Assembly (NCBI GenBank): GCA_026770705.1 | Contig: JANJGN010000024.1 | Span: 14,694,001-14,758,000 of the forward strand | Source of the DNA: Isurus oxyrinchus | Lineage: Eukaryota | Direction of reading: 5' to 3' | DNA length: 64,000 bases | In this document: positions 1-39,467 of the stretch, one piece after another | Position numbering within the stretch: the first letter of the stretch is position 1 | How the letters are laid out: every line of letters begins with the position of its first letter | Translations under genes and position numbers: made by a program | The notes under the pieces: generated by a model | Seen by the model: only the letters and a program-made list of their open reading frames with translations | Told to the model about the DNA's origin: nothing | Databases searched by the model: none

Positions 1-31
1 GGCAATGGCTACAACTGACCTCAGTACCTCA

Positions 32-252
32 AAACAAAAACAGAATTACCTGGAAAAACTCAGCAGGTCTGGCAGCATCGGCGGAGAAGAAAAGAGTTGA
101 CGTTTCGAGTCCTCATGACCCTTCAACAGAGTCATGAGGACTCGAAACGTCAACTCTTTTCTTCTCCGCCGATGCTGCCAGACCTGCTGAGTTTTTCCAG
201 GTAATTCTGTTTTTGTTTTGGATTTCCAGCATCCGCAGTTTTTTGTTTTTAT
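32..252. mobile_element. Palindromic non-autonomous Penelope-like element (two inverted terminal-repeat arms with hammerhead-like motif), in TRAPPC4 intron 1
   Basis: 32-130 is largely the reverse complement of 131-220. The arms match the PLE 3' terminal repeat at 3920-4055 and 22330-22469. TSD ctcagtacctca at 20-31 and 253-264. Confidence 0.9.
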
Positions 253-945
253 CTCAGTACCTCACAGTTGCCTGAGGGAGTATAAATTACTGTGGTTGAG
301 CACAATCCAGTTCCTCCATTAGAAATATTTGTGGATGAATGTTGGCATGGGCAGGATCCGACAATGGTCACCATGCAACACTGTGAGAGGTCTCGGTTCA
401 CCTATAAACAGCAGCAACTGCAATGGGGAACTAGAAAGCAGCCCATGCCAATGGAGTAAACCAGCAGGCCAGGAGGGAACAACCCATAAAAAAATTGCAG
501 GTGTTTAACAAAGCTGTGACCCCACAATCAACTGAAATACCCAAACATACTGAAATCCAAGTATAGGTCTCAGTTAACACTGTTACATATTAAACAATTC
601 CAAATACCCATCTCTAAACTAACCCAGATCCACTGCAACAGATACAAGGGCTTCACCAGTGGGTGAGGGTGATATTTTTCACTGATATATTTCTCCTTCT
701 AGTTGCACCAAGTTGCAGGCAAACTTGAAGGATTTAAAGGTAAAATCTTGGAATCTATCGGAATTAGGTGATGGATGAAAGGTAACTAACGTAGTCCAAC
801 CGACCATTTGTTAAGATGTCTGACTATGAACTGTGAATACCAGGAGATTATTTAAAACTACTTTATGTGCCAGGCCCAGGCTTCCAGGGACCTTTCCTAA
901 GAGCAGGAGCCGCCAGCCGCGCCCCAGCGCCCGGCCTGCCCTCAC

Positions 946-1120
946 CTTTGATGCCATCCCTCTGACCGAAAGACACCACAACCCGCTCGTCGTACACCTT
1001 CAGCACAAGGTCGAGCGGGTAACTGAAGGTCTTCTCCACATCGGTGCGGGGTGAGTAATTGTCGTACTGGTAAACCAAGCCGCCAGCTTTATTCACCACA
1101 TAAACACTGAAAACCACCAT
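946..1120 (-). CDS. TRAPPC4: Trafficking protein particle complex subunit 4, coding exon 1 (gene continues off the left edge)
   Basis: [58 protein letters not shown] matches the TRAPPC4/Trs23 N-terminus. Donor AAAG|gtgag at 945. Synteny with RPS25 and CCDC84. Confidence 0.95.
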
Positions 1121-1240: not shown

Positions 1241-1360
1241 TCCCATCTTGGACCCTCCATCCTTGCATGTCCCTCTGTCCCCACCCCATTTTCCAATCCC
1301 AGCCCCAGCTGTGTATTCACTATACCCCCTGACCTCCCCCTCTCCGACGCTGAATGTTAA

Positions 1361-3535
1361 GTGCTCAGCAAAGGACTTAGTTTCATACCCCTACGCCCTC
1401 ACGTTAATGAATTTCGGGCTCGGCACGATGCTGAACTCTTCTTCCGCCGTCTTCGTCTCCGGGCTCACTTCTTTGGGCAGGAGTCTTCTCCCCGTTCAAT
1501 GGAGCCTTTTACCCACCTCCAATATTCTCCCTCCACCTGGACCCCTCCCTCTGGATTCTTACCTTCTCTTGATCTTTTCATTGAGAACTGTCGGCGCGAC
1601 GTTAGTCGTCTCAATTTCTCTGCTCCTCTCACCCACTCTAACCTGTCTCTCTCTGAACTTGCTGCACTCTATTCTCTCAGGTCCAACCCCAACATTGTCA
1701 TCAAACCTGCTGACAAGGGTGGTGCTGTTGTTGTCTGGCGCACTGATCTCTACCTCGCGGAGGCTGAGCATCAACTCGCAGACACTTCCTCCTACCTCTC
1801 CCTAGACCATGACCCCACCACTGAACATCAAGACACTGTTTCCAGGACTGTCACTGACCTCATCTCCTCTGGAGATCTTCCTCCCACAGCTTCCAACCTG
1901 ATAGTCGCCCAACCTCGGACGGCCCGCTTCTATCTCCTACCCAAAATACACAAACAGGACTGTCCCAGCAGACCGATCATGTCAGCCTGTTGCTGCCCCA
2001 AGGAACTAATTTCTCGTTATCTTGACTCCCTTCTCTCTCCCCTTGTCCAGTCCCTTCCCACCTACATCCGTGATTCCTCTAACACCTTACGTCACATCAA
2101 CAATTTCCAGTTCCCTGGCCCCAACCACTTCCTCTTCACCATGGACATCCAATCCCTCTACACCTCCATCCCCCACCAGGATGGTCTGAGGGCCCTTAGC
2201 TTCTTCCTCGAACAGAGGCCCAAACAATCCCCATCCACCATTACTCTCCTCCGTCTGGCTGAACTTGTTCTCACACTGAACAGTTTCTCCTTCAACTCCT
2301 CTCACTTCCTCCAAATAAAAGGTGTGGCTATGGATACCCGCAGGGGCCCCAGCTATGCCTGTCTCTTTATGGGGTATGTGGAACATTCCTTGTTCCAATC
2401 CTACTCCGGCCCCCTTCCACAATTCTTTCTCTGGTACATCGATGATTACTTCGGTGCTGCTTCATGCTCTCATCGGGACTTGGAAAAATTTATTAATTTT
2501 GCTTCCAATTTCCACCCCTCCATCATTTTCACGTGGTTCATCTCTGACACTTCCCTTCCCTTCCTTGACCTCTCTGACTCAATCTCTGGTGATAGACTGT
2601 CCACCAATATCCATTACAAACCCACCGACTCCCACAGCTACCTCGACTACAGCTCCTCACACCCCGCTTCCTGTAAGGACTCCATCCCATTCTCTCAGTT
2701 CCTTCGCCTCCGTTGCATCTGTTCTGATGATGCTACCTTCAAAAATAGTTCCTCTGACAAGTCCTCCTCCTTCCTTAACCGAGGTTTTCCACCCACGGTC
2801 GTTGACAGGGCCCTCAACCGTGTCCGGCCCATCTCCCGCGCATCCGGCCTCACACCTTCTCCTCCCTCCCAAAACCATGATAGGGTGCCCCTTGTCCTCA
2901 CTTATCACCCCACCAGCCTCCGCATTCAAAGGATCATCCTCCGCCATTTCTGCCAACCCAGCATGATGCCACCTCCAAACACATCTTCCCTTCACCACCA
3001 CCACCCCCCCCCCCCCCCCCCCCCCCCCTCTCAGGCAGCATTCCGTAGAGATCGTTCCCTCCGGGACACCCTGGTCCACTCCTCCATCACCTCCTACTCC
3101 TCAACCTCCACCTATGGCACCTCCCAATGCCCACGCAAAAGTTGCAACACCTGCCCCTTCACTTCCTCTCTCCTCACCGTCCAAGGGCCCAAACACTCCT
3201 TTCAAGTGAAGCAGCATTTCACTTGCATTTTCCCCAACTTAGTCTACTGCATTCGTTGCTCCCAATGCAGTCTCCTCTACATTGGCGAGACCAAACGTAA
3301 ACTGGGCGACCGCTTTGCAGAACACCTGCAATCTGTCCGCAAGAATGACCCAAACCTCCTTGTCGTTTGCCATTTTAACACTCCACCCTGCTCTCTTGCC
3401 CACATGTCTGTCCTTGGCTTGCTGCATTGTTCCAGTGAAGCCCAACACAAACTGGAGGAACAGCACCTCATCTTCCGACTAGGCACTTTACAGCCTTCCG
3501 GACTGAATATTGAATTCAACAACTTTAGATCTTGA
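1361..3535 (+). CDS. PLE polyprotein, 5'-truncated: RT ([28 protein letters not shown]), Cys linker (CPRKSCNTC), GIY-YIG endonuclease ([15 protein letters not shown])
   Basis: 724-aa ORF with diagnostic PLE motifs. It lacks the native ATG and carries substitutions such as GTRMGP>DTRRGP. Confidence 0.88.
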   Translation: MLSKGLSFIPLRPHVNEFRARHDAELFFRRLRLRAHFFGQESSPRSMEPFTHLQYSPSTWTPPSGFLPSLDLFIENCRRDVSRLNFSAPLTHSNLSLSELAALYSLRSNPNIVIKPADKGGAVVVWRTDLYLAEAEHQLADTSSYLSLDHDPTTEHQDTVSRTVTDLISSGDLPPTASNLIVAQPRTARFYLLPKIHKQDCPSRPIMSACCCPKELISRYLDSLLSPLVQSLPTYIRDSSNTLRHINNFQFPGPNHFLFTMDIQSLYTSIPHQDGLRALSFFLEQRPKQSPSTITLLRLAELVLTLNSFSFNSSHFLQIKGVAMDTRRGPSYACLFMGYVEHSLFQSYSGPLPQFFLWYIDDYFGAASCSHRDLEKFINFASNFHPSIIFTWFISDTSLPFLDLSDSISGDRLSTNIHYKPTDSHSYLDYSSSHPASCKDSIPFSQFLRLRCICSDDATFKNSSSDKSSSFLNRGFPPTVVDRALNRVRPISRASGLTPSPPSQNHDRVPLVLTYHPTSLRIQRIILRHFCQPSMMPPPNTSSLHHHHPPPPPPPPSQAAFRRDRSLRDTLVHSSITSYSSTSTYGTSQCPRKSCNTCPFTSSLLTVQGPKHSFQVKQHFTCIFPNLVYCIRCSQCSLLYIGETKRKLGDRFAEHLQSVRKNDPNLLVVCHFNTPPCSLAHMSVLGLLHCSSEAQHKLEEQHLIFRLGTLQPSGLNIEFNNFRS

Positions 3536-3917
3536 ACTCCCTCCTCCATCCCCACCCCCTTTCCGTTTCTTCCCCCTTCATTTTGTTTTTTCCAATAATT
3601 TATATAGATTTTTCTTTTCCCACCTATTTCCATTATTTTTAAATCTTTTATGCCCCCCTACTCCCACTAGAACTGTACCTTGAGTGCCGTACCATCCATT
3701 CTTAATTAGCATATTCGTTTAGATAATAACATCAACTTCAACACCTCTGTGTTCTTTTGTCTGTGTCATCTTTTGATGATCTGCTTCTATCACTGCTTGC
3801 TTGTCCCTACAACAACACCCCCCCCTCCACTTCTCTCCCCCACCAACCACCATCCCCCCCACCCCCCACCACCACCTTAAACCAGCTTATATTTCACCCC
3901 TCTCCTTGGATTCACCC

Positions 3918-3956
3918 AGTTCTGTTGAAGGATCATGAGGACTCGAAACGTTAACT
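3918..3956 (+). ncRNA. Minimal type I hammerhead-like motif (core variant CUGUUGA)
   Basis: agtt-CTGTTGA-aggatc-atgag-gactc-GAAA-cgtt-aact. Confidence 0.55.
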
Positions 3957-4061
3957 CTCTTCTTCTCCGCCGATGCTGCCAGACCTGCTGAGTTTTTCCA
4001 GGTAATTCTGTTTTTGTTTTGGATTTCCAGCATCCGCAGTTTTTTGTTTTTATCTTATTAT

Positions 4062-4261: not shown

Positions 4262-7200
4262 ACCTGATATTAATTTTCAAATGCTCTCTGGCCACAGGAG
4301 AGTTGCCAGAGGACTGCAAATGTGTTACCATTATTCAAGAAGAGTGGTAGGGATAAACCAGGGAACTGTAGGCCACTGAGTCTAACATCAGTGGTAGGGA
4401 AACCTTGGAAAAAATTCTGAGGGACAGGATTAATCTCCATTTGGAGAGGCAGGGATTAATCAAGGAAAGTCAGCATGGCTTTGTCAGGGGGAGATCATGT
4501 CTAACAAATTTAATTGAATTTTTCAAGGAGGTGACTAGGTGTGTAGATGAGGGTAGTGTGGTTGGTGTAGTCTACATGGACTTCAGTAAGGCTTTTGACA
4601 AGGTCTCTCACATGGGAGACTGGTCAAAAAGGTAAATCCCCATGGGATCCAGGGCAATTTGGAAAATTGGATCCAAAAGTGGCTTATTGGCAGGAGGCAG
4701 AGGGTGGTGGTTGAAGGTTGTTTTTGTGACTGGAAGCCTGTGTCCAGTGGCGTACCGCAGGGTTCAGTGCTGGGTCCCTTGCTATTTGGCACCTAGACGT
4801 GAATGTAGGAGGAATGATCAGTAAGTTCACAGATGACACGAAAATTGGTGATCTGGTAAATAGCGAGGAGGAGAGCCTTAGACAACAGGACGATATAGAT
4901 GGACTGGTCAGATGGGCAGAATAGTGGCAAATGGAATTTAATCCTGAAAATTCTGAGGTGATGCATTTTGGGAGGACTAACAAGGCAAGGTAGTACATGA
5001 TGAAAGGTAGGACCCGAGGAAGTACAGAGGACCGGAGGGACCTTGGTGTGCATGTCCATAGATCCTTAAAGGCAGCAGGACAGGTAGATGAGGTGGCTAA
5101 GAAGGTGTATAGGATACTTGCCTTTATTAGCTGAGGCATTGAAAACAAGAGCATGGAGGTTATAAAGCATTAGTTAGGCCACATCTGGAGTATTATATGC
5201 AGGTCTGGTTGCCACATTATAGGAAAGATGTGATTGCACTGGAGAGGGTGCAAAGGAGATTTACCAGGATGTTGCCTGAGCTGGAGTGTTTCAGCTATGA
5301 AGAGAGAGTAGATAGGCTGGGGTTGTTTTCCTTAGAGCAGAGAAGGCTGAGGAAGGACCCAATAGAGGCATACAAAATTATGAGGGACACTTCCTCCTAC
5401 CTCCCCCTTGACCATGACCCCACCACTGAACATCAAGCCATTGTTTCCAGGACTGTCACTGACCTCATCTTCTCTGGAAATCTTCCTTCCACAGCTTCCA
5501 ACCTCAGCCTCCCAACCTCGGATAGCCCGCTTCTACCTCCTAACCAAAATCCACAAACAGGACTGTCCTGGCAGACCAATCGTGTCAGCCTGTTCATGCC
5601 CCAAAAAACTCATTTCTTGCTATCTTGACTCCATTCTCTCTCCCTTGTCTAGTCCCTTCCCACCTACATCCGTGATTCCTCTGACATCCTACATCATATC
5701 AATAATTTCCAGTTCCCTGGTGCCAACTGCCTCTTCTTCACCATGGACGTCCAATCCCTCTATACCTATATCCCCCACCGGGATAGTCTGATGGGTCTCC
5801 TCTTCTTCCTCGAACAGAGGCCCGAACAATCCCTATCCACCGCTACTCACCTCCGTCTGGCTGAACTTGTTCTCACGCTGAACAATTTCTCCTTAAACTC
5901 CTCTCACTTCCCCCAAATAAAAGGTGTGGCTATGGGTACCCGCAAGGGCCCCAGTTATGTCTTTCTCTTTATGGGGTATGTGGAACATTCCTTGTTCCAG
6001 TCCTACTCTGGCCCCCTCCCACAACTCTTTCTCCAATACATCGATGATTGCTTCGGTGCTGCTTTATGCTCTCGTCTGGACCTGGAAAAATTTATTAATT
6101 TTGCTTCCAATTTCCACCCCTCCATCATTTTCACATGGTCCATCTCTGACACTTCCCTTCCCTTCCTTGACCTCTCTGTCTCAATTTCTGATGATAGACT
6201 GTCCACCAATATCCATTACAAGCCTACCGACTCCCACAGCTACCTCGAGTACAGCTCCTCACACCCCGCTTCCTGTAAGGACTCCATCCCATTCTCTCAG
6301 TTCCTTCGCCTCCGTCGCATCTGTTCTGATGATGCTACCTTCAAAAACAGTTCCTCCAACATGTCTTCTTTCTTCCTTAACCGAGGTTTTCCACCCACGA
6401 TGGTTGACAGGGCCCTCAATCATGTCCGGCCCATCTCCTGAGCACCCACCCTCACACCTTCCTCTCCCTCCCAGAACCTCGATAGGATCCCTCTTCCCCT
6501 CACTTATCACCCCACAAGCCTCTGCATTCAAAGGATCATCCTCCAACATTTCCGCCAGCTCCAGCATGATGCCACCACCAAACGCATCTTCCCTTCACCT
6601 CCCCAGTGGCTTTTTCACAGGGATTGTTCCCTCTGGGACATCTGATTGCCTCCTCCATCACTCCCTACACCTCAACGCCCTCCCACGGCACCTATCCATG
6701 CAACCGCAGAAGGTTCAACACCTGCCCCTTTACTTCCCCTCTCCTCACTGTCCAAGGGCCCAAACGCTCCTTTCAAGTGAAGCAGCATTTCACTTGCACT
6801 TCCCTCAATTTAGTCTACTGCATTCGTTGCTCCCAATGCGGTTTCCTCTACATTGGAGAGACCAAACATAGACTGAGTGACCACTTTGCAGAACACCTTT
6901 GGTCTGTCCACAAGCATGACCCAGACCTCCCTGTCGCTTGCTATTTCAACACTCCACCCTGCTCTCATGATCACATGTCCATGTTTGACCTGCTGCATTG
7001 TTCCAGTGAAGCTCAACGCAAACTGGAGGAACAGCACCTCATTTTCTGACTAGGCACTTTACAGCCTTCCGGACTGAATACTGAGTTCAACAATTTCAGA
7101 TCATGAACTCTCTCCTCCATCCCCATCCCCTTTCCGATCCCCCCCTTTTTTTCCAATAATTTATATAGATTTTTCTTTTCCCACCTATTTCCATTATTTT

Positions 7201-7910
7201 TAAATGTATTTCCATTCATTGTTTTATCTCTACCTTTTAGCCTATTTCAATCCCTTCCCTTCACCCCACCCCACCCCACCCCGACTAGGGCTATCTGTAC
7301 CTTGCTTGTCCTGCTTTCTACCCTTAATTAGCACATTCCTTAGATAATATCACCACTTCTTTGTCCTTTTGTCTATAACATCTTTTGGCTATCTCCACCT
7401 ATCACTGGCCTTTTATCTAGCTCTACCTATCTCACCCACCCCCTCTTAAACCAGCTTATATTTCACCTCTTTTTTATTTTTACTTAGTTCTGATGAAGAG
7501 TCATACGGACTCAAAAAGTTAACTGTGTTCCTCTCCGCAGATGCTGCCAGACCTGCTGAGTTTGTCCAGGTATTTTTATTTTTGTTTTGGATTTCCAGCA
7601 TCTGCAGTTTTTTGCTTTTATCTTATGAGGGGCATAGATGGGGTATATATGAAGAAACTTTTCCCCTTAGTGGATGTGTCAATAATCAGGGGGCATAGAT
7701 TTAAGGTAAGGGGCAGGAGGTTTAAAGGGGATTTGAGGAAAAATTTTTTCACCCAGAGGGTGGGTGAGTTTCTGGAACCCACTGCTGAATGGGTGCTAGA
7801 GGCGGGAACCCTCACAACATTTAAAAAGTATTTAGATGAACATTTGAAATGCCATAACATACAAGGCTACCGGCCAAGTGCTGGAAAATGGGATTAGAGT
7901 AGATAGGGGC
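4262..7910 (+). mobile_element. Decayed CR1-type LINE, interrupted by a PLE at 5387-7622
   Basis: QHGFVRGRSCLTNLIEFF, YMDFSKAFDKV, QVWLPHYRKDVIALERVQRRFTRM; resumes after the PLE with RGHRFKVRGRRF..NFFTQR. Confidence 0.88.
5387..7622 (+). mobile_element. Older, decayed Penelope-like element nested in the CR1 LINE
   Basis: RT and GIY-YIG fragments with stops and frameshifts. Terminal repeat has canonical CTGATGA at 7490-7496. TSD ttatgaggg at 5378-5386 and 7623-7631. Confidence 0.9.
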
Positions 7911-9689
7911 TTGATGATTGGCACAGACGCAATGGGCTGAAGGGCCTCTTTCCATGCTGTAAGACTCTATGACTCTATGTTGCAATGTAGGAAAGTTGGC
8001 TGTTAAATTGCACACAGCAAACTGCCACAAGCCACAAATTATGTTTTTCTGACAGTAATTCTTTGTTGTGGGGTAAATTATGGCCAGGATACTCTTTTTC
8101 AAATATTGCTACAGGACTGAAAGTTGACACTTCAAACAATATGCTGTCTCAGCACGAGCATTGGGATTGTCAACCTGGATTTTTTGCTCAATCTTCTGAT
8201 TCAATACTACCAACTGAGCCACAGGTGACACCTGACAGTCGGCTATGCAGCACAGCTAAACGCCATTTGGTCCAACAAAAGAGCTCTATCCCTATAACCC
8301 TGTAAATTATTTTCCTGTTCAAGTGTTATTATTTAAATATTTATCAAACTCAGCTTCTAAAATTCTACGCAATGGTTAAAGAGCAACTTTTTATAATTGT
8401 TCATGTGATTTTTTTTTAATATTCGTTCATTGCTGCAGCCAGCATTTCAGAGAACATTTAAAACTCAGCTACATTGCTCTGGGTCTGGAGACCTGATTTC
8501 CTTCCCTAAAGGACATATTTTTAAAAAGATAAAAATAACGTTAGCAGTTTATTTACACAGATCTTTACCACAACATGGCAATAGGATGTGCCATGGAGAC
8601 AGTTACATATCAACATTCTGATTACCAGATGCAAGACAGAAGGTATACCAACCCTTCATGGTTCCTAGGAAAGTTCATCCAGGTTAACTGGTGGTCCTCA
8701 GACTCTGAGAAAGCCACTTCCAGTTGGGTTCTCTTAAATCCAATGTTATTATGGGATGCACACACTGACATGCTTACACAGGCCATATTGCACCATATCC
8801 CAACTGTCCAGCAGCTTGTGACACCAGGCATGATTCAATCTCACTATTTCCCTTTTCTGTCACTAAGGGGAAGATGCCATTCAGCTGGTGGATTCTTCCT
8901 CATCTCCCAAATTGGAAGGTGCCTCTTTTGGTCCTCTATGTGAACTAGATGGAACCACCAACAATGATTTCGCGGCCATCATCAGAGTTTTCTTGAATTC
9001 AAATTTCAGCATCTGTAATTCAAATCCGGGTCACTGGAATATTAATCCAGTGACAATATCACTATGCCACACTCCCCCTTGAAGTATATTAATTTATCTT
9101 GCAATGCACTGAATGTTATGTAGGCAAACACCACCCCAAAACAGCACTGGAATAAGTGCTGATGAAAGGTTGTTCACCTGTAGAATTAACTTAGGTCTTT
9201 CTCTCTCTGTTCCATGACCTGCTGAAGGTTTCCAGTGTTTTTTGTCTTTTTATTTCTGAATTTCAGGTAGGAGGGTATGAGGTTTGGAAGTAAATCCCAG
9301 AGCTGAAGGATGGTCATGGTGAATAACTAGAATTGGACATGCTCCAGCGGCCAGAATCAGAGGAGCACCAAATCTCAGAGGCTGGAGGAGATTAGAGGTA
9401 GGGATCTCTACAGCTATCAGATCTGATGCATGCTTTATGAATGCAAATTATCGCAAATCAATGCAAAGCATTAAGTGTTGGAGTGTGAGAATGTAGTGGA
9501 GGCAGCTTCAGTCATGTCTTTCAAAAGGGAATTGGATTACTGAAGAGAAAATATTTGCAGGGCTGGGGGGAAGCTGTGAGATGGCAGGGACATGTGACTA
9601 GCTGAGTTGCTCTTACATAGGACAATGGGCTGAATGGCCGCTGTCTGTTCTCTAAATGTGATTCTTTGAAGAAACATTCTATACAAATA

Positions 9690-9905: not shown

Positions 9906-9958
9906 TAAAATAAATGCAAGTGATTTCTGATAAATAGATAGGGTGGAATCAAGAAATG

Positions 9959-11296
9959 AAAACAAAGAAAACTGCGGATGCTGGAAATCCAAAACAAAAA
10001 CAGAATTACCTGGAAAAACTCAGCAGGTCTGGCAGCATCGGCGGAGAAGAAAAGAGTTGACGTTTCGAGTCCTCATGACCCTTCGACAAAACTTGATTGA
10101 GTGCAGTAAGTTCAGAGAGAGACAGGTTAGAATGGGTGAGAGGAGCAGAGAAATTGAGACGACTAATGTCGCGCCGACAGTTCTCAATGAAAAGATCAAG
10201 AGAAGGTAAGAATCCAGAGGGAGGGGTCCAGGTGGAGGGAGAATATTGGAGATGGGTAAAAGGATCTGTTGAACTGGGAGAGGACTCCTGCCCAAAGAAG
10301 TGAGCCCGGAGACGAAGACGGCGAAAGAAGAGTTCAGCATCATGCCGAGCCCGAAATTCATTGAGGTGAGGGCGTAAGGGTATGAAACTAAGTCCTTTGC
10401 TGAGCACTGAACGTTCAGCATCGGAGAGGGGAAGGTCAGGGGGTATAGTGAATACACGGCTGGGGCTGGGATTGGAAGATGGGGTGGGGACGGAGGGACA
10501 GGCTGGGGTGGAGGGTCCTAGATGGGTGTTGGTGTCGATGAGTTGTTGGAGCTTGCGTTCCTTAGCAGTTGAGAGAAAGAGAAAAAGTTTCTTGTTGAGG
10601 CGTCGGATGAGCCGAAGGATAAAATGAAACTGGGGGCACGCGCAGCTTTGAAAAAGGGTACGGCGGTGCTGCTGGAGGGAGAGGTCGAGTGTGTTCATAT
10701 GGCGGCGCATGGCACTGAGTGTGGATTTCAGAATGTGACGGGAACAGCAGTCTGAGAAACGTTTTATGTCCCGGAGATACCGGTAATCCTGGGTGGGTTC
10801 AAAAGATGAGGGGTGGAATTTCAGTTGAAATCCACGTGGGATAAGTCGGAGACGGAGGCAGTCACTGAGAAAGGAGATATGGCTGTGAAAGCGGGTTTTA
10901 GTAAACACCTTGTCAAACACTAGGAGGGAAATGGAAAGCAAAGAAGGTGAACAAGGCAACAGAGAGATACGGAAATCTTGTCGCAGAGAAGAACAGAACT
11001 TCTTCAAGGAGGTAGGCATTTCTTGAAGAGCAGTGGCAGTCAATTAAACACAGAGATGAAAACAAAGAAAACTGCGGATGCTGGAAATCCAAAACAAAAA
11101 CAGAATTACCTGGAAAAACTCAGCAGGTCTGGCAGCATCGGCGGAGAAGAAAAGAGTTGACGTTTCGAGTCCTCATGACCCTTCGACAGAACTTGATTGA
11201 ACTCAAGTTCTGTCGAAGGGTCATGAGGACTCGAAACGTCAACTCTTTTCTTCTCCGCCGATGCTGCCAGACCTGCTGAGTTTTTCCAGGTAATTC
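9959..11296 (-). mobile_element. PLE insertion: inverted repeat + 5' repeat + ORF N-terminus + 3' repeat (RT/EN absent)
   Basis: Three terminal-repeat copies at 9959-10096, 11058-11197 and (inverted) 11200-11296. 15-bp TSD tggaatcaagaaatg at 9944-9958 and 11297-11311. Confidence 0.9.
10006..11019 (-). CDS. N-terminal ~310 aa of the PLE polyprotein, fused in frame to terminal-repeat sequence
   Basis: ATG at 11019 (MPTSLKK...). HISFLSDCLRLRLIPRGFQL motif. The C-terminal part overlaps the start of the 1361-3535 ORF (LSKGLSFIP...NLSLSEL). Confidence 0.75.
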   Translation of the reverse strand: MPTSLKKFCSSLRQDFRISLLPCSPSLLSISLLVFDKVFTKTRFHSHISFLSDCLRLRLIPRGFQLKFHPSSFEPTQDYRYLRDIKRFSDCCSRHILKSTLSAMRRHMNTLDLSLQQHRRTLFQSCACPQFHFILRLIRRLNKKLFLFLSTAKERKLQQLIDTNTHLGPSTPACPSVPTPSSNPSPSRVFTIPPDLPLSDAERSVLSKGLSFIPLRPHLNEFRARHDAELFFRRLRLRAHFFGQESSPSSTDPFTHLQYSPSTWTPPSGFLPSLDLFIENCRRDISRLNFSAPLTHSNLSLSELTALNQVLSKGHEDSKRQLFSSPPMLPDLLSFSR

Positions 11297-11439
11297 TGGA
11301 ATCAAGAAATGTTGTGTGGGTTTTACTTTGATTTATTATGTTGATGTTTACTATGCATTATCTTCAAAATTAAACATTTCAACAGTCCCCTTGGACAAGT
11401 CCAAACGCTTGGGGCAAACTTCAGTTAACTTAGAATCCT

Positions 11440-11588: not shown

Positions 11589-18042
<6,454 letters not shown>

Positions 18043-18900: not shown

Positions 18901-19123
18901 AATGTGTTACACGTGATTGATTTATTAAATAGGTATCTGCATACAACTGTTATTGTGCAGGATATTCCTGTTTGCTCTAATGCTGCTTTTTAACCTGTGG
19001 GCTATGAGGTTAAATTACCTCTGGGTCAAGTTAGGATAGTAATTGAAGCTCAGGCAATCTCATTAGTTGGAGTAGCTGATGCTATGTTATCAGGTATGGA
19101 CTGAGCAACTATTAAAATATTAA

Positions 19124-22100
19124 AAACAAAAACAGAATTACCTGGAAAAACTCAGCAGGTCTGGCAGCATCGGCGGAGAAGAAAAGAGTTGACGTTTCGA
19201 GTCCTCATGACCCTTCGACAGAACTTGATTTCGAGTCCAGGAAAGAGTTGAAATATAAGCTGGTTTAAGGTGTGGGGGGGGGGGGGGAGAGATAGAGAGA
19301 GAGAGAGGTGCTTGTGTAGACAAACAAGCAGTGATAGAAGCAAATCATCAAAAGATGTCAGTCACAATGGTACAAAAGAACACATAGGTGTTAAAGTTAA
19401 AGTTGGTGATATTATCTAAACGAATGTGCTAATTAAGAATGGATGGTAGGGCACTCAAGGTACAGCTCTAGTGGGGGTGGGAGGAGCATAAAAGATTTTA
19501 AAATATTTAAAAATAATGGAAATAGGTGGGAAAAGAAAAATCTATATAATTTATAGGGAAAAAGGGGGAAACAGAAAGGGGGTGGGGATGGGGGAGGGAG
19601 CTCACGACCTAAAGTTGTTGAACTCAATATTCAGACCGGAAGGCTGTAAGGTGCCTAGTCGGAAGATGAGGTGTTGTTCCTCCAGTTTGCGTTGGGCTTC
19701 ACTGGAACAATGCAGCAAGCCAAGGACAGACGTGTGGGCAAGAGAGCAGGGTGGAGTGTTAAAATGGCAAGCGACAGGGAGGTTTGGATCATTCTTGCGG
19801 ACAGACCGCAGGTGTTCTGCAAAGCGGTCGCCCAGTTTACGTTTGGTCTCTCCAATGTAGAGGAGACCACATTGGGAGCAACGAATGCAGTAGACTAAGT
19901 TGGGGAAATGCAAGTGAAATGCTGCTTCACTTGAAAGGAATGTTTGGGCCCTTGGATGGTGAGGAGAGGAAGTGAAGGGGCAGGTGTTACATCTTTTGCG
20001 TGGGCATGGGGTGGTGCCATAGGAGGGGGTTGAGGAGTAGGGGGTGATGGAGGAGTGGACCAGGGTGTCCTGGAGGGAGCGATCCCTACGGAATGCCGAT
20101 AAGGGGGGTGAAGGGAAGATGTGTTTGGTGGTGGCATCATGCTGGAGTTGGCGGAAATGGCGGAGGATGATCCTTTGAATGCGGAGGCTGGTGGGGTGAT
20201 AAGTGAGGACAAGGGGGACCCTATCATGTTTCTGGGAGGGAGGAGAAGGCGTGAGGGCGGATGCGCGGGAGATGGGCCGGACACGGTTGAGGGCCCTGTC
20301 AACGACCGTGGGTGGAAAACCTCGGTTAAGGAAGAAGGAGGACATGTCAGAGGAACCGTTTTTGAAGGTAGCATCATCGGAACAGATGCGACGACTGCCC
20401 CGGTAGACCAATTGTCTCAGCTTGCTCCTGACCCACAGAACTCATCTCTCGTTATCTTGACTCCCTTCTCTCTCCCCTTGTCCAGTCCCTTCCCACCTAC
20501 ATCCGTGATTCCTCTGACACCTTACGTCACATCAACAATTTCCAGTTCCCTGGCTCCAACCGCTTCCTCTTCACCATGGACGTCCAATCCCTCTACATCT
20601 CCATCCCCCACCAGGATGGTCTGAGGGCCCTTAGCTTCTTCCTCGAACAGAGGCCCGAACAATCCCCATCCACCACTACTCTCCTCCGTCTGGCTGAACT
20701 TGTTCTCACACCGAACAATTTCTCCTTCAACTCCTCTCACTTTCTCCAAATAAAAGGTGTGGCTATGGGTACCCGCATGGGCCCCAGCTATGCCTGTCTC
20801 TTTATGGGGTATGTGGAACATTCCTTGTTGCAGTCCTACTCCGGCCCCCTTCCACAACTTTTTCTCCGGTACATCGATGATTACTTCGGTGCCGCTTCAT
20901 GCTCTCGTCGGGACTTGGAAAAATTTATTAATTTTGCTTCCAATCTCCACCCCTCCATCATTTTCACGTGGTCCATCTCTGACACTTCCCTTCCCTTCCT
21001 TGACCTCTCTGTCTCAATCTCTGGGGATAGACTGTCCACCAATATCCATTACAAACCCACCGACTCCCACAGCTACCTCGACTACAGCTCCTCACACCCC
21101 GCTTCCTGTAAGGACTCCATCCCATTCTCCCAGTTCCTTCGCCTTCGTCGCATCTGTTCCGATGATGCTACCTTCAAAAACGGTTCCTCTGACATGTCCT
21201 CCTTCTTCCTTAACCGAGGTTTTCCACCCACGGTCGTTGACAGGGCCCTCAACCGTGTCCGGCCCATCTCCCGCGCATCCGCCCTCACGCCTTCTCCTCC
21301 CTCCCAGAAACATGATAGGGTCCCCCTTGTCCTCACTTATCACCCCACCAGCCTCCGCATTCAAAGGATCATCCTCCGCCATTTCCGCCAACTCCAGCAT
21401 GATGCCACCACCAAACACATCTTCCCTTCACCCCCCTTATCGGCATTCCGTAGGGATCGCTCCCTCCAGGACACCCTGGTCCACTCCTCCATCACCCCCT
21501 ACTCCTCAACCCCCTCCTATGGCACCACCCCATGCCCACGCAAAAGATGTAACACCTGCCCCTTCACTTCCTCTCTCCTCACCATCCAAGGGCCCAAACA
21601 TTCCTTTCAAGTGAAGCAGCATTTCACTTGCATTTCCCCCAACTTAGTCTACTGCATTCGTTGCTCCCAATGTGGTCTCCTCTACATTGGAGAGACCAAA
21701 CGTAAACTGGGCGACCGCTTTGCAGAACACCTGCGGTCTGTCCGCAAGAATGATCCAAACCTCCCTGTCGCTTGCCATTTTAACACTCCACCCTGCTCTC
21801 TTGCCCACATGTCTGTCCTTGGCTTGCTGCATTGTTCCAGTGAAGCCAAACGCAAACTGGAGGAACAACACCTCATCTTCCGACTAGGCACCTTACAGCC
21901 TTCCGGTCTGAATATTGAGTTCAACAACTTTAGGTCGTGAGCTCCCTCCCCCATCCCCACCCCCTTTCTGTTTCCCCCTTTTTCCCTTTTTTTCCCTATA
22001 AATTATATAGATTTTTCTTTTCCCACCTATTTCCATTATTTTCAAATATTTTAAAATCTTTTATGCTCCCCCCACCCCCTCTAGAGCTGTACCTTGAGTG

Positions 22101-22469
22101 CCCTACCATCCATTCTTAATTAGCACATTCGTTTAGATAATATCACCAACTTTAACTTTAACACCTATGTGTTCTTTTGTACCATTGTGACTGACACCTT
22201 TTGATGATTTGCTTCTATCACTGCTTGTTTGTCTACACAAGCACCTCTCTCTCTCTATCTCCCCCGCCCCCCCCCCCCCCCCCCCCCACCTTAAACCAGC
22301 TTATATTTCAACTCTTTCCTGGACTCGAAATCAAGTTCTGTCGAAGGGTCATGAGGACTCGAAACGTCAACTCTTTTCTTCTCCGCCGATGCTGCCAGAC
22401 CTGCTGAGTTTTTCCAGGTAATTCTGTTTTTGTTTTGGATTTCCAGCATCCGCAGTTTTGTTTTGTCTT
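19124..22469. mobile_element. Large fold-back PLE insertion: minus arm 19124-20394, plus arm ~20393-22469 (454-aa RT/GIY-YIG ORF at 20576-21940)
   Basis: Arms are near-identical over about 1.27 kb. 14-bp TSD tattaaaatattaa at 19110-19123 and 22470-22483. Confidence 0.93.
22334..22372 (+). ncRNA. Minimal type I hammerhead-like motif (core variant CUGUCGA)
   Basis: agtt-CTGTCGA-a-gggtc-atgag-gactc-GAAA-cGTC-aact: stem I agtt/aact, stem II gggtc/gactc, palindromic ACGT stem III. Confidence 0.6.
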
Positions 22470-23413
22470 TATTAAAATATTAAGTAGGGACTACCTACAG
22501 ATGTTTTTTGATGTGGATACATGACCAGGAATGTTTATAACTAAATACAAATATGCTTTTGTATGGTGGTTGTTAGCTGTGGTATTATTCGGTTGTGTAA
22601 ATTGTGACCTGTAAATGGTTACTTTTCATCCCATGTGACAATTCTACAAGACCTTTAAGAGCAAAAGGGCACACTGCAAATTAGTTCACTTTCATTCTAC
22701 CCAACTTTTTTTTTTAAAGTTAATAGCAATCCCATAAGACAGTTTGATAGCTGCTTTTATCCAAACAAATTTACTAAGTAGTATATCCATTATCCTTTTT
22801 CTTTGCAATTGGAATGTGCCAAATCCAAATTAATTAATCTGCTCTTGTATGTAGACCTTATCTGTAAAATGGGTGCAGAGCCCCTGCCCAAGTGCAAGTT
22901 TTGAGGATTGCTGATCTTGAGTGCACTAGCACAAATAATTAGAAACACAGGAAAATGGATTGTAATTACTAATTTTTGATAAAAGTAATGCACTGTTAAT
23001 GAACTGAGAAGGATGGAGGTAACCATCAAATAACAATTCCATTTGAACAGATCTTTTATTACATGGAAATTACAGTCTTGCATTGATCGATGAACTAAAT
23101 CCATTTTTACCATAGGATTAGTTTACAATAGTTAAGGCCAGCAGGTAGGACAGTGGTTTATAAACAGACTATATACCATTAGTGAGGAGTACAAATAATT
23201 TACAGTCCTGGTTATTGCAATGGAATATAAAACTAGGTTTCAACTATTGACCTAATTTACTTGAGTATACAATATTTCAGTAAAACATTTTATACTAGAT
23301 CTGAGTCTAGCCATAAGTAACATGTTAAATATTTAACATTAAAATATTTCTTTAAAGCACAAAAAATCTCAACCATTTTCCTCTTCCCAAATCCATTTGG
23401 AATAGTCCTCTGG

Positions 23414-29400: not shown

Positions 29401-32400
29401 ACAGCAAAACCAGCTGTTGGAAGAGAAAGACAAGTTGCTAGATGTTCACACACATTCTTTCGATCAAGTGTAAGGATGAATAATCTGACTCCACAACTCT
29501 GTGCTAGTGCCACTCTACAACTAGCTGCTGGAATGCACATAAGCATGACTCTTTCCAATTGCCATTTTCCCTACTAAAGGCATCTAGCACCTAGCCTCTG
29601 GCACCNNNNNNNNNNNNNNNNNNNNNNNNNNNNNNNNNNNNNNNNNNNNNNNNNNNNNNNNNNNNNNNNNNNNNNNNNNNNNNNNNNNNNNNNNNNNNNN
29701 NNNNNNNNNNNNNNNNNNNNNNNNNNNNNNNNNNNNNNNNNNNNNNNNNNNNCCTACATGCATGGTGCTATATGCTGACTTTCCAACATGGGGTAGCACC
29801 ATGGGGTTTGATAACTTTTAATATCTGCCTTTTAAGACCCCCACAAGCTAATATTCAGGTAAAATTGACAGCTTTGGCCTGAGTTTACACATCATAATCA
29901 GAGCACAGACAGGACTTAAAAATACTAAGGAGCATGTTTTCCAGGAACCAGAGACAGAGGGAGAGACTGTTGCAATTACAGCAATGCCTCAATTTATGCA
30001 ACTCTTCCTGGGGTATGGTCCCATCAGAGCAGGTAGCCTTCCAGTATCAAGTCATACAATACCTGGTCAATCTTCATATGCGAGCCTTGATAACAAATAT
30101 TCAAGTGCCTGATCCTAAGCTTACTCAATATTCATATCTATGCAATTTCTAACACAGATTAAAGTGTCACAAGTAGGACTGATTGCTGTGATAATAATAG
30201 TATTTAAACATTTCAGAAGAATATCCAGAGATTTTAAAAAATAAAAACATTTCTCTTACCTCTCATAGTGGTTGACTGCAAACACTGGGAATCCATCAAC
30301 AGAATTCTGCTCTGCCTGTGGCTGGTTTTGATTCAGGAAAAATCAACACTTTTTTTCTTAAAGTTTAAAATAAAGCATCAGCAGTAACTATTGCACTAGT
30401 GACGAGCAAGCAATTTATCTGTAAAATGCATTCTAGCAGAGGTATGAAGTTTCTAGATATTCAACTCCAATGGACTTGGTGTATAGGATATAATCCACAA
30501 TACATTCTACTTGACTTTATAAGTGCTCCCTCTGCATTATTTAGATAACAGACTCCCAGCTATAAACTCTCATTCACTTCACCTGCATTGGTAAGATCTC
30601 AGGGCTGGGTAAAGGAGTCACATCCTTCCTGTGTTCCAAGGCTGCTTGAAGCAATGCTAATGCCTTCCACACCTGAGCCATACAAATACAGAGGATGCCC
30701 TCCACTTTAGAATGGGGCTGTAGACAGAAGCTACCTCACCCACCTTGAACCAGGTGACAACATGGAATGCTCGAAATGGAAATCCACAACACTCCCCCTA
30801 CCCTCCTTTAACCCAGGTTGGATGAGCTGTGGGGAACCATGAAAATAGCAGATGAATGGGGAAAAGAGAAACACTTCAAAAACAAATTAAACTTTTCAAT
30901 TTCCAAACATTCCCCTTCATTGTTCCTATATAAAAAGGAGACTAGCATTAAATATGCTAGTCTAGGAAATAATTACATGAATAGAATGACACTATATCAA
31001 ATATTGTGACAAACCATTGTAACCAAAATAAATAAAGTTTGTTTTGTGTTACTGTATTGCAATGGATATATTTACTATGCCCATTTTCTTCTTAACATCC
31101 AAAGCAGAGGATCAGTTTTCTATTATTCCCGACAGCTCACTGGGAAAGAGAGAAAATACACTTGAAAATTTATATATACAGGTAGAGTATTCTTTATCCA
31201 AAACCCTTGGGGCCAATTGCATTTGGGTTTTCAGATACTGCATATAAACTTACATCACAATATCCTAACCCTAGGCTAGCTCTAGTCCAATGTAAATTAA
31301 ATGGCCAGAAAAGTAAGATGTATCACTGAATAATAAATACAGGGTGCCTGTAATAAGTTTAATCACAAAAATCATAAGGTAAACAGGGCAGAAAAACAAT
31401 TAGGCTTCCTGTGTTATAGGTTGATGAAGTTCAAAAAAAAAGTGCAGCTTTTGAATGTGTTCGGTTTTCAGATTTATGGATAAAGGATATTCGACCTGTA
31501 TAAAAAATCATTCACAGTTTAAAATAATCCTCATTTCCCTCTTCCTTTAAGGCACAGAATCATCACTGGAGTGCAATCAGAGAAAGATGTTCAGTTCTCT
31601 TAAAATGCATAGATAGAAAACTCAAAATATACCCAACCTGACTAAAATGCAATTTAGGAGGTTTTCCATCATAATGAGGCACCCCACCACTGAACATCAA
31701 GCCATTGTTTCCAGGACTGTCACTGACCTCATCTCCTCTGGGGATCTCCCTCCCACAGCTTCCAACCTGATAGTCACCCAACCTTGGATGGCCCGCTTCT
31801 ATCTCCTGCCCAAAATCCACAAACAGAACTGCCCCGGTAGACCGATCGTCTCAGCTTGCTCCTGCCCCACAGAACTCATTTCTCGTTATCTTGACTCCCT
31901 GCTCTCTCCCCTTGTCCAGTCCCTTCCCACCTACATCCGTGATTCCTCTGACACCTTACGTCACATTAACAATTTCCAGTTCCCTGGCCCCAGCCGCTTC
32001 CTCTTCACCATGGACGTCCAATCCCTCTACACCTCCATCCCCCACCAGGATGGTCTGAGGGCCCTTAGCTTCTTCCTCGAACAGAGGCCCGAACAATCCC
32101 CATCCACCACTACTCTCCTCCGTCTGGCTGAACTTGTTCTCACGCTGAACAATTTCTCCTTCAACTCCTCTCACTTCCTCCAAATAAAAGGTGTGGCTAT
32201 GGGTACCTGCATGGGCCCCAGCTATGCCTGTCTCTTTATGGGGTATGCAGAACATTCCTTGTTCCAGTCCTACTCCGGCCCCCTTCCACAACTCTTTCTC
32301 CGGTACATCGATGATTACTTCGGTGCTGCTTTATGCTCTCGTCGGGACTTGGAAAAATTTATTAATTTTGCTTCCAATCTCCACCCCTCCATCATTTTCA

Positions 32401-35400
32401 CGTGGTCCATCTCTGACACTTCCCTTCCCTTCCTTGACCTCTGTCTCAATCTCTGGTAATAGACTGTCCACCAATATCCATTACAAACCCACCGACTCCC
32501 ACAGCTATCTCGACTACAGCTCCTCACACCCCGCTTCCTGTAAGGACTCCATCCCATTCTCTCAGTTCCTTCGTCTCCGTCGCATCTGTTCCGATGATGC
32601 TACCTTCAAAAACAGTTCCTCTGACATGTCCTCCTTCTTCCTTAACCGAGGTTTTCCACCCACGGTCGTTGACAGGGCCCTCAACCGTGTCCGGCCCATC
32701 TCCCGCGCATCCGCCCTCACGCCTTCTCCTCCCTCCCAGAAACATGATAGGGTCCCCCTTGTCCTCACTTATCACCCCACCAGCCTCTGCATTCAAAGGA
32801 TCATCCTCCACCATTTCCGCCAACTCCAGCATGATGCCACCACCAAATACATATTCCCTTCACCCCCCCTATCAGCATCCCGTAGGGATTGCTCCCTCCG
32901 GGACACCCTGGTCCACTCCTCCATCACCCCCTACTCCTCAACCCCCTCCTATGGCACCACCCCATGCCCACGCAAAAGATGCAACACCTGCCCCTTCACT
33001 TCCTCTCTCCTCACCGTCCAAGGACCCAAACACTCCTTTCAAGTGAAGCAGCATTTCACTTGCATTTCCCCCAACTTAGTCTACTGCATTCGTTGCTCCC
33101 AATGTGGTCTCCTCTACATTGGAGAGACCAAACGTAAACTGGGCGACCGCTTTGCAGAACACCTCGGTCTGTCCGCAAGAATGACCCAAACCTCCCTGTC
33201 GCTTGCCATTTTAACACTCCACCCTGCTCTCTTGCCCACATGTCTGTCCTTGGCTTGCTGCATTGTTCCAGTGAAGCCCAACGCAAACTGGAGGAACAAC
33301 ACCTCATCTTCCGACAGGCACTTTACAGCCTTCCGGACTGAATATTGAATTCAACAACTTTAGGTCGTGAGCTCCCTACCCCATCCCCACCCCCCACTTT
33401 CTGTTTCCCCCTTCCTTTTTTTTTCCAATAAATTAAAAAAAAATTTAAAAATTTAAAAAATCTTTTATGCTCTCCCCACCCCCACTAGAGCTATACCTTG
33501 AGTGCCCTACCATCCATTAATTAGCACATTCGTTTAGATAATATCACCAACTTTAACACCTATGTGTTCTTTTGTACTATTGTTGTTGACATCTTTTGAT
33601 GATCTGCTTCTATCACTGCTTGTTTGTCCCTACAACCACACCCCCACTCCACTTCTCTCTCTCTCTCCGCCCCCCACACACACACCTTAAACCAGCTTAT
33701 ATTTCAACTCTTTCTTGGACTCAAACTCAAGTTCTGTCGAAGGGTCATGAGGACTCAAAACGTCAACTCTTTCCTTCTCCGCCGATGCTGCCAGACCTGC
33801 TGAGTTTTTCCAGGTAATTCTGTTTTTGTTTTTGTTATGTTGTAGGAATAATCAGTCTGTACTTATTGTATGAGTTCCTCTAGTTTTTAAACTGAGCATC
33901 ATCTTTATTGCCCCCAGTACATTAAATCTCACCAGGGCCACCCATATTTTGCCTTTGAACAAATAGCTGAGGTCCGGGACCAGGTTGGAGGAAAGCAATT
34001 CTGTTCTCAGATTCAGAAGTTTAAAAAAAATTCCTGTGATGTAAACATTTTTGGCATGCACACGTGTATAGAGGGGTTGGAACCACAGAAAGTAGGACAT
34101 AGGGTGAGGCCATTCAGCCCATTGAATTGGAGCCATCACCTGAATCCACTTTTTCTGCTCATTTTTTATAACTTTTTATAGAATGGAGAAAAATAACTTG
34201 GGTTGATATCCCCAACTCAAAACAGGAAAACCAAAATGAGTTAAATGTTCATGCATTACTAGAACCATATTCAGGGGCACTACTGTATATAACAGTTCTA
34301 CTTTTCAAAAAAAACTCAACTCTATGATCCTGTTCTATGAAAATTAAAACAATTGCTATAGATAAGAGATTTCTAGGTTTGGGTTGGTTTAGTTTGAATT
34401 TAGTGAAAAACACAGCATCGCTTAAGATTTTTGAATCCTTTTCTTTCCTCTCTGTAGGCCCCACTCTGCTAACTCACCAAAGTAGCCAAGCTCTGTGAGT
34501 CTTAACAGGCAATGTTGGCAGGCCATTGGTGAAACTAACTGAAGTCAAGTCAAGCCCAACCCCAGCTTTATGCAATATCTACACAGACACTTTTTGGGGC
34601 GACAGGGGAAGGGGAAGGAGCACTGGATTGTGATTGACACAAAGAATCTTAGTTTTCTGACTTTCCATTCTAGGCCAATTGCAGCCACCCTAATGTTGGC
34701 CTCACTGAGATTAGCTAAAACAAATTAGGGATCAAAATCTGGGGCCTTTTTTTTTTACAGCTTGGCTATATGCTGCCTTAACCCAGCAAACTATCAAGGT
34801 AGCCCCATTTAATGCTTTTAGAATCATTGTGCAATACATAGATCAGTAGGTGTAAAATACAACAGTTGCCATGGATACTGTTCAGGCTCATCCAGGTAAA
34901 ACCAACCTCAAAGGCAGCCTGCACAACCTCCTGTCTTCTCCGTTCCACTTCTCGAATATATTCTGCTTCCTACAGAGGATCGACCAAATGACAAATTAAA
35001 AATAATCAGTCATATAATAATCACTGGAGTGAAAAAGTCGAAAGACAATGGAATTTATTAAACAAAAGTAGGTGGGGGGGTGGGCAGGGGGAGAGAATCA
35101 CAAGCCTGCCTTTACACAGAGACGATATATTATTGATAACAAATACACTAATGGGTTGGTATTAAATTCCACTACAGTATCTGAATTCAATTATAAGCAT
35201 TCAAAAAGATGAGTAGGTTAACTCCTTTGTTAAAATAGCAAACAAAAGGATTCCAACTTATATTGTTAACAAAGATGCTAATGTATCAATATGATTGCAA
35301 TCAGAGTGTCTTAAATCATTCAAAAATACCAAGCTTCTTTGAATCAATAACAAAGACCATCCTTTGCAAATTTTCAACACCAGGAGAGCACAAGATGCAT

Positions 35401-38219: not shown

Positions 38220-39467
38220 CATAGAAAATAGGAGCAGGAGTAGGCCATTTGGCCCTTCGAGCCTGCTCCGTCATTCATGATCAGGGTTGTTCATCCAACT
38301 CAATAGCCTGCTCCCACTTTCTCCCCATATCCTTTGATCCATTTTGCTCCAAAAGCAATATCTAACTCCTTCTTGAAAACATACATTGTTTTGGCCCAAA
38401 CTACTTTCTGTGGTAGCGAATTCCACAGGCTGACCACTCTGTGTGAAGAAATTTCTCTTCATCTCAGTCCTAAATGGTCTACCCCGCATCTTCAGACTGT
38501 GACCCCTGGTTCTGGACTCACCCACTATTGGGAACATTTTTCCTGCATCTGCCCTGTCTAGTCCTGTTAGAATTTTATAGGTTTCTATGAGATGCCCCCA
38601 TATTCTTCTAAACTCCAGTGAATATAATCCAAACCAACTCAATCTCTCTTCATATGTCAGTCCCATTATCCCAGGAATCAGTCAAGTAAATCTTCGCTGC
38701 ACTCCCTCTATAGCAAGAACATCCTTCCTCAGATAAGGAGACCAAAACTGCACACAAAATCCTAGGTGTGGTCTCCTCAAGGCCCTGTATAATTGCAGCA
38801 AGACATCCCTGCTCCTGTACTCGAATCCTCTCGCTATGAAGGCCAACATACCATTTGCTTTCTTTACTGCCTGCTGCAACTGCATGCTTACCTTCAGCGA
38901 TTGGTTGCACATTCCCTTCTCTCAATTTATAGCCATTCAGATAATAATCTGCCTTCCTGTTTTTGCTACCAAAACACTTATCCACATTATACTGCATCTG
39001 CCATGCATTTGCCTACTCACTCCCTTGTCCAAATCACACTGAAGCATCTCTCCATCCTCCTCACAGCTCACCCTCATCCCCAGCACACCCTCCAACCCAG
39101 CTTTGAGTCATTTGCAAATTTGGAGATATTACATTTAGTTCCCTCATCTAAATCACTAATATATATTGTGAATAGCTGGGGTCCCAGCCCCGATCTCTGC
39201 GGTACATCACCCGGTACTGGCTGCCTTTCGGAAAAAGACCCATTTATTCCTACTCTGATTCCTGTCTGCCAATCGGTTTTCTATCCTCCTCAATACACTA
39301 TCCCTAATTTCATGCACTTTAATTTTACACGCTAATCTCTTATGTGGGACTTTGTCGAAAACCTTCTGAAAGTCCAAATAAATCACACCCATTGGCTTCC
39401 CCTCATCAACTCTACTAGTAACATCATCAAAAAATTCCAGTAGATTTGTCAAGCGTGACTTCCTTGC
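38220..39467 (-). mobile_element. Decayed CR1 LINE
   Basis: [48 protein letters not shown]. Confidence 0.88.

Follow-up and report, generated by a model that had tools for sequence, protein, structure and literature searches.

Head-to-head hairpins in an Isurus oxyrinchus contig as insertion products of a PLE assigned to the Neptune/Nematis type, possibly primed by both target strands

Six head-to-head hairpins lie in the window (the whole stretch of 64,000 nt analysed here), and they are almost certainly insertion products of a PLE. We put at roughly 0.55 the probability that they were made by both nicked target strands, each priming a separate cDNA on the element RNA. The architecture has already been described: these are ordinary PLE insertion products, a new instance in a family assigned to the Neptune/Nematis type, and their mechanistic value is modest.

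Inverted-repeat and BLAST scans of the window, together with direct reading, identified c1–c6 as head-to-head pairs of one repeat, which in all six is the PLE 3' end (pseudo-LTR, pLTR). They lie where a sequence-only reading had placed them (32–252, 9959–11296, 13144–13451, 16318–16664, 19124–22469, and 60510–60874). Five of the six fall within the first 22.5 kb, and about 22% of the window is PLE sequence. Their parts are given below, with arm ends given as the distance in nucleotides that separates the TSD from the predicted hammerhead cut (+67 is 67 nt past the cut).

20–31: left TSD of c1, a 12-bp word with its right copy at 253–264
32–130, minus strand: tail-less arm of c1, ending at +67 and reaching 8–11 nt further 5' than its partner
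131–252, plus strand: tail arm of c1, starting within helix II without the 5' half of the core and ending at +101
253–264: right TSD of c1, the 12-bp word
9944–9958: left TSD of c2, 14–15 bp, with its right copy at 11297–11311
9959–10098, minus strand: outer pLTR of c2 with tail, ending at +100, its 5' end at the same element position as that of the inner pLTR
10099–11055, minus strand: PLE 5' region and N-terminal part of the ORF in c2, with the ATG at 11019; 94% identical to 1242–1672
11056–11198, minus strand: inner pLTR and tail of c2, contiguous with the ORF 5' region and 98.7% identical to the outer pLTR
11199–11296, plus strand: inverted tail-less arm of c2, ending at +56
13135–13460: fold-back c3, TSD 13135–13143/13452–13460 (9 bp with 1 mismatch)
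13144–13280, minus strand, and 13279–13451, plus strand: tail-less and tail arms of c3, with a 2-nt centre microhomology and the tail-less arm 8 nt longer
16304–16678: fold-back c4, TSD 14 bp
16318–16486, minus strand, and 16487–16664, plus strand: tail-less and tail arms of c4, the tail arm with a 10-nt deletion in helix II
19110–22483: long fold-back c5, TSD 14 bp
19124–20394, minus strand: tail-less arm of c5, 1.27 kb
20394–22469, plus strand: tail arm of c5, 2.08 kb, with the C-terminal half of the RT and the GIY-YIG domain; 751 nt longer than its partner
60497–60887: older-subfamily fold-back c6, TSD 13 bp with 1 mismatch
60510–60643, minus strand, and about 60777–60874, plus strand: tail and tail-less arms of c6, with canonical CUGANGA cores and without the 5' strand of helix I

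The best shared flank words measure 12 bp in c1, 15 bp in c2, 9 bp in c3 (1 mismatch), 14 bp in both c4 and c5, and 13 bp in c6 (1 mismatch). Compared with 2000 random segment pairs per copy, these lengths were matched by at most 1 of 2000 pairs for five copies, with no random pair as long as the c1 word, and c3 is marginal (random-pair fraction 0.05). The TSD of 9–15 bp claimed around each pair is accordingly clear in five cases and marginal in one. Variable-length TSDs characterize canonical EN+ PLEs, and here they span 9–15 bp, with five of six significant.

Long, tail-bearing ends lie 101, 100, 105, 95, 101, and 102 nt past the cut site in c1–c6, and short, tail-less ends 67, 56, 61, 65, 67, and 67 nt past it. 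The tail sits on exactly one outer end in all six insertions, with a long–short difference of 30–44 nt per insertion, in agreement with the claim that one arm is complete and the other stops at least ~30 nt earlier. Short ends had been said to stop in or just before the tgtttttg tract; some do, and others stop just after it. Palindrome centres differ among all six copies, as proposed, and the label “mini” suits c1, c3, c4, and c6 (221–365 nt) but not c2 (1.3 kb) or c5 (3.3 kb).

The arms are contiguous with an ORF encoding RT and GIY-YIG that carries DKG and YIDD motifs, and in c5 RT/EN coding sequence is present in both arms. A profile search gave an RVT_1 match above the cut-off in 20432–21940 and below it in 1361–3535, and a GIY-YIG match (E 2–5e-4) just below the Pfam cut-off. 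Further marks of canonical EN+ PLEs are also present: a single ORF with RT followed by a C-terminal GIY-YIG, direct or inverted pLTRs with 5' truncation, and a tail of 30–40 bp at one end (30–44 nt here, in 6/6). All 3 scanned ORFs carry a CX4CxxC linker, as do 104 of the 120 homologues listed. In PMC8557442, as far as its accessible text goes, a CX2-5CxxC linker upstream of GIY-YIG marks Neptune/Nematis and is absent in Penelope/Poseidon, and from this motif we assign the PLE to the Neptune/Nematis type. Among the matches listed, sharks and rays supply the named homologues of highest identity (59–70%), which points to a cartilaginous fish as the likely host.

Four single-arm copies, absent from the sequence-only reading, accompany the hairpins; three are long-ended and one is short-ended.

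1242–4052, plus strand: 5'-truncated copy with a 724-aa open frame (DKG, YIDD, CX4CxxC linker, GIY-YIG) and a long end
5388–7622, plus strand: older copy with a long end and a 9-bp TSD
31681–33834, plus strand: copy with a short end; no significant TSD or inverted partner detected
39468–40273, minus strand: PLE 3' end with tail, the other end lost in an N gap

Of the three long-ended copies, one has a clear 9-bp TSD, another has a weak TSD, and the third is cut by the N gap. This N run (an assembly gap, 40274–40374) truncates the copy at 39468–40273. The copy at 5388–7622, like c3, is apparently inserted into decayed LINE-type repeats.

The accessible portions of earlier PLE papers describe much of this structure. 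Inverted pLTRs within 8–10 bp TSDs, with a 31-bp tail optional on one of them, and sequences captured between solo pLTRs were reported together with a self-priming proposal (PMC3846280, Arkhipova et al. 2013); an inverted 5'-truncated copy with a one-sided tail of 30–40 bp is typical of PLEs (PMC8557442, Craig et al. 2021) and is given as curation lore in PMC8969392. Our copies resemble the EN+ PLE units of PMC3846280 and PMC8557442 in their head-to-head inverted pLTRs, one-end tail, TSD (9–15 bp here, about 8–10 bp in PMC3846280), partial tandems, and captured foreign sequence. They differ in that four of the six consist of pLTR arms only. As accessible, the published accounts (PMC3846280, PMC8557442) explain inversion by self-priming and give no tally of the arm with the greater reach at the centre.

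A hammerhead motif is recognizable in the arms, as in the tail arm of c5.

22334–22372, plus strand: minimal type I hammerhead-like motif in the tail arm of c5, by descriptor features from PMC4209133

In this motif, helix I is formed by 22334–37 and 22369–72, the core occupies 22338–44 with U at position 6, a bulged A precedes a 5-bp helix II, GAAA lies at 22361–64, and the cut is predicted after 22368. The helix layout appears to match the minimal type I descriptor in the accessible part of PMC4209133 (93.5% of 108 cells paired, against 16–49% when the layout was slid), and with the minimal hammerheads of that paper it seems to share a 4-bp helix I, a bulged base before helix II, G10.1–C11.1, and a palindromic helix III stub. 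Unlike them, the arms carry U at core position 6 in 13/17 cases, a variant absent from the accessible part of that paper, and no covariation, with 0 compensatory pairs among the 14 of 17 arms aligned. Position 6 is A in 3/17 arms, which lack helix I (c6) or G12 (s5386), and the core is absent in one. Most arms thus lack the CUGANGA core of minimal type I hammerheads, and a complete canonical hammerhead is found in 0/17 arms, a result new here; the motif is recognizable and, in most arms, non-canonical. A natural A6C hammerhead variant has low activity, according to the accessible text of PMC3088659. Rfam gave 0 hits at gathering thresholds over the window, and its hammerhead models gave none on 7400–7700 at E up to 10; both results are uninformative for minimal hammerheads, which lack helix III.

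A read-through transcript of c1 is predicted to pair arm with arm over 196 of 221 nt. The description of the insertions as hairpin/ribozyme cassettes is therefore not supported, given 0/17 complete canonical hammerheads, U at position 6 in 13/17 arms, and arms predicted to pair mutually in RNA. All arms span the predicted cut site and none ends there, so the RNA templates were uncleaved. Dual minimal hammerheads on opposite strands, 100–700 bp apart, are on record in Schistosoma (PMC4209133, in the part accessible).

On element coordinates, the tail-less arm extends further 5' at the centre in c1 (8–11 nt), c3 (8 nt), and c4 (by roughly 10 nt or more, within a slippery G/C tract), and the tail arm is the longer one in c5 (751 nt) and in c2 (a 1.2-kb partial tandem containing the ORF N-terminus). 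Since the tail is present in one arm only, the arms of c1, c3, and c4 each hold sequence absent from their partner. Neither class of arm is consistently contained in the other, an observation new here. In c6, about 135 nt of non-PLE spacer separates arms of similar reach. Because the arms are non-nested and no single copying order fits the five informative cases, two independent RNA-templated cDNAs are favoured.

The spacer of c6 (60644–60779) partly resembles dispersed repeats at 14209–14241, 56751–56783, 56905–56937, and 9034–9079, and may be a captured fragment or a later insertion.

Over 81 nt, the cores of c1, c2, and c5 show 0–1 differences, yet they have three different centres, and no centre is common to any two of the six; the hairpin is therefore not an amplified unit. 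Together with an architecture that is standard for PLE insertions (PMC3846280 and PMC8557442, as accessible), this speaks against the distinct mini-element family that had been envisaged. The arms of one insertion belong to the same subfamily by their sequence differences (7 between the c6 arms versus 14 or more to others, and 4 versus 6 or more in c3; c4 is ambiguous). Between the two arms of c5, 12 of 1271 aligned positions differ (6 of them beyond a poly-C tract), against at least 6% to other copies.

Of the six, c2 is the most informative. In the order of cDNA synthesis, it begins at the long register and halts about 140 nt further on. A jump through 2–4 nt of microhomology (at about 10099, where the ORF segment joins the outer pLTR) takes it into the ORF about 920 nt past the ATG, from where it runs back through tail and pLTR to a second stop at the same position. 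Its three termini, including that of the inverted arm, lie within about 4 nt of one element position, and such a triple stop at one 5' point within a single copy, combined with a jump into the ORF, is new here. Most simply read, these stops would mark a defined 5' end of the RNA, close upstream of the hammerhead motif, where the cDNA ran off and then made an end-to-end template jump. Such jumps are a known phenomenon. Both c1 and c6 stop within about 20 nt of the c2 stop point, and c3 and c4 stop 30–65 nt further upstream. At the outer junctions, the overlap between TSD and element continuation is 0–3 nt in 11 junctions (the c5 long end left out), a figure that carries no null expectation.

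In the dual-priming explanation, the endonuclease would make a staggered cut of 9–15 nt, one strand would prime at a distal register that includes the tail, and the other would prime at a proximal register about 35 nt away. Each cDNA would stop independently, and the two cDNA 3' ends would be joined through 0–3 nt of microhomology or a captured fragment. For the small copies, priming may have occurred in the 5' pLTR of an uncleaved transcript, the cDNAs reaching its 5' end, close upstream of the hammerhead motif, and running off there; such copies are predicted to be dead-end by-products and not a self-amplifying family.

Published in vitro work on an anole element supports several of these steps. 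In the accessible text of PMC11167929, both target strands are substrates for cleavage and extension by the anole PLE protein. Its RT starts at two internal sites that bound the tail, with no need for ribozyme cleavage. Top and bottom strands did not differ in start site in that system, which therefore does not explain why each insertion here has one long and one short end. The element studied there, Anolis Poseidon PAc (Frangieh et al. 2024, PMC11167929), resembles ours in having registers that bound the tail and uncleaved RNA as template; it belongs to the Poseidon clade and its ORF starts inside the ribozyme, whereas ours has a CX4CxxC linker and a first ATG about 40 nt past the tail. The accessible text of that paper does not address inverted ends.

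A parallel exists in L1 twin priming, in which both target strands prime and leave an inversion with junction microhomology inside one TSD. The hairpins share the microhomology inversion within a single TSD; L1, by contrast, inverts a different, upstream part of its RNA, and here both arms copy the same region from starts about 35 nt apart. A literature search, with key subscription papers outside its reach, found no dual- or twin-priming model for PLE inversions.

Evidence from beyond the window comes from contigs of four coded runs aligned to one tailed arm (22100–22520, 421 nt), to which organism A (run X1) contributes 68,121 contigs and organism B (run X9) 60,172. Among the best six rows per run (846 more lie beyond them), counted as contigs and not as copy numbers, 3' loose ends at 22459 occur in 436 (X1) and 516 (X9) contigs, their loose letters being the rest of the tail, in a pile sharpened by a private variant of the reference. 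In the same rows, short-register ends occur at 22436 (264 and 347 contigs) and 22435 (183 and 224), and those at 22417 (181 and 255) reflect subfamily divergence. Both end registers are prominent in two related organisms in similar numbers; loose ends of this kind say nothing about the pairing of short with long ends. Strand-change joints are rare, at 1–2 contigs per run each, and the comparison of centres does not draw on them. Two contigs of X1 and two of X9 carry an opposite-strand joint at 22434/22472 that connects the short register with the tail end.

The proposal that each nicked strand primes its own cDNA from one of two registers thus gains from the presence of both registers here and in the contigs of two organisms, from the non-nested arms, and from the agreement of the in vitro data (PMC11167929, as accessible); the priming step itself we infer. 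It is not obligatory, given that three of the four single-arm copies are long-ended without an inverted partner. The sample is six insertions, and the main caveat is that later asymmetric deletion at the centre could mimic non-nesting in a hairpin that had copied itself. Long palindromes are prone to such deletion.

That self-copying is what the published accounts propose: an RNA-templated arm, sense or antisense, would fold at the centre and be copied into the second arm, with the tail difference left by endonuclease resolution and the centre asymmetry by later deletion. Palindromes at inverted junctions led to the idea (PMC3846280) and the tail has been ascribed to EN-mediated resolution (PMC8557442), both as accessible; the near-identical arms of young copies and the near-perfect palindromes at the c1 and c2 centres fit it as well. 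Snap-back copying requires nesting, however, and cannot account for c1, c3, and c4 with the tail arm made first, nor for c2 and c5 with the tail-less arm made first; the c6 centre holds about 135 nt of foreign sequence, and in vitro, reverse transcription begins at the tail boundaries of sense RNA (PMC11167929, in its accessible text), so we regard this origin as rather unlikely. Less likely again is a combination in which a first cDNA from the proximal, tail-less register snaps back with a loop of 8–11 nt and synthesis from the second target strand begins on the RNA tail and then switches to the snap-back strand. The tail-less arms of c1, c3, and c4, all longer by a similar 8–11 nt or slightly more, and the 2-nt microhomology of c3 are what it would predict, but it could not produce c2 and c5, where the tail arm has 0.75–1.1 kb absent from its partner, and would need a second pathway. 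A more speculative and rather unlikely arrangement would derive the pseudo-LTRs and the inverted ends of PLEs from a strong-stop-like mechanism. Two RT subunits would load on a single uncleaved transcript close to its 5' end, about 35 nt from each other, and each would be primed by one target strand. The pair would run off the RNA 5' end to give a double strong-stop hairpin (the mini fold-back), or one would jump to an RNA 3' end and copy a whole unit into a direct pLTR, as may be frozen in c2; in a young, recently active lineage with an A6U core, the motif would then be a protein-binding or promoter structure and not a catalyst.

Readings that treat the hairpin as a mobile unit or as an error fare worse. 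A non-autonomous retro-family, similar to retrozymes or SINEs, would have the fold-back itself transcribed and re-inserted by the PLE protein. Non-LTR retrozymes do derive from PLE pLTRs and, like our copies, are short, hammerhead-bearing, and present in a cartilaginous fish (bioRxiv 10.64898/2026.07.22.740005, as accessible), and contig depth over the pLTR core far exceeds that over the upstream UTR, a difference confounded by subfamily divergence and not a copy number. Retrozymes, however, are direct head-to-tail tandems of a fixed unit, each with a complete, active type I ribozyme, and we find head-to-head pairs with non-canonical motifs and unique centres, three of them around the near-identical cores of c1, c2, and c5; such a family is very improbable. 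The idea of a transposase-moved DNA MITE with terminal inverted repeats draws on a superficial likeness in shape (221–365 nt, inverted arms, a TSD) and is effectively refuted by TSDs that vary from 9 to 15 bp, ends asymmetric by 30–44 nt in place of symmetric TIRs, variable centres in place of a uniform internal structure, and arms contiguous with an RT ORF. On this point the earlier view that the insertions look like MITEs and are retro-products is upheld, the RT and GIY-YIG ORF being contiguous with them. Least probable of all is an assembly or library fold-back artefact. Palindromic chimeras are known from long-read data, and the assembly has homopolymer indels and an N gap; against this, TSDs flank the whole structure, the arms of c3, c4, and c6 have diverged at 4–7 of about 80 sites, and one X5 contig crosses the right junction of c5 (22443–22520) without differences, which covers that junction.

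The origin of tandem and inverted PLE ends is an acknowledged open question (PMC8557442, in its accessible text), and a genome with very many such junctions (68,121 contigs of one run on 421 nt) offers a natural dataset for weighing dual priming against self-priming. For annotation, such hairpins should be treated as PLE products and not as MITEs.

The insertions are distributed within and between two genes, a likely trappc4 (weak Sybindin hit) and rps25, and fold-backs in or beside these host genes would form long double-stranded stems in pre-mRNA. The likely trappc4 exon 1 (944–1120, minus strand) and the rps25 exons (11590–16184, plus strand) are arranged head to head. Within this arrangement, the presumed rps25 ATG comes about 290 nt after the end of c2; c3 is placed between two of the rps25 exons, and c4 just after the last exon identified.

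Within the element, a donor-like motif (CAG/GTAATT) lies just before the short register and an acceptor-like motif (TTCAAG) just before the ORF ATG; these putative splice-like motifs are at 11056–11020 and 11102–11107 on the minus strand, with the same motif at 22415–22423 on the plus strand, and the donor-like GT is missing in the older c6 subfamily. If they bound an intron, both RT start registers would be intronic and only unspliced RNA could serve as template.

At 22397, an A>G difference stands at 10–12% in two small, possibly RNA, runs versus 1–3%; it was rejected as a sign of editing because it comes with neither a T>C counterpart nor matched DNA from the same individual. At 22397 and 22421, A>G is 5–10 times commoner in the small, possibly RNA, runs than in the DNA runs, which is probably a matter of subfamily composition rather than editing.

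Pattern scans did not find the pLTR core in viral or metagenome contigs, and a protein scan of metagenome contigs gave 3 loci among 63 candidates, with no evident pair of inverted pLTRs around the match at any of them. At L002:366–780, a GC-rich cluster of direct and inverted repeats lies upstream of a distant PLE-like ORF, with an (AAT)n tract at 2882–3046 downstream. Elsewhere in the window, decayed RT-bearing LINE fragments occur at 4300–5380, 38602–39464, and 50040–50930 (RVT_1 match 50225–50860), and 56659–56965 is a direct tandem duplication of 154 nt with 95% identity.
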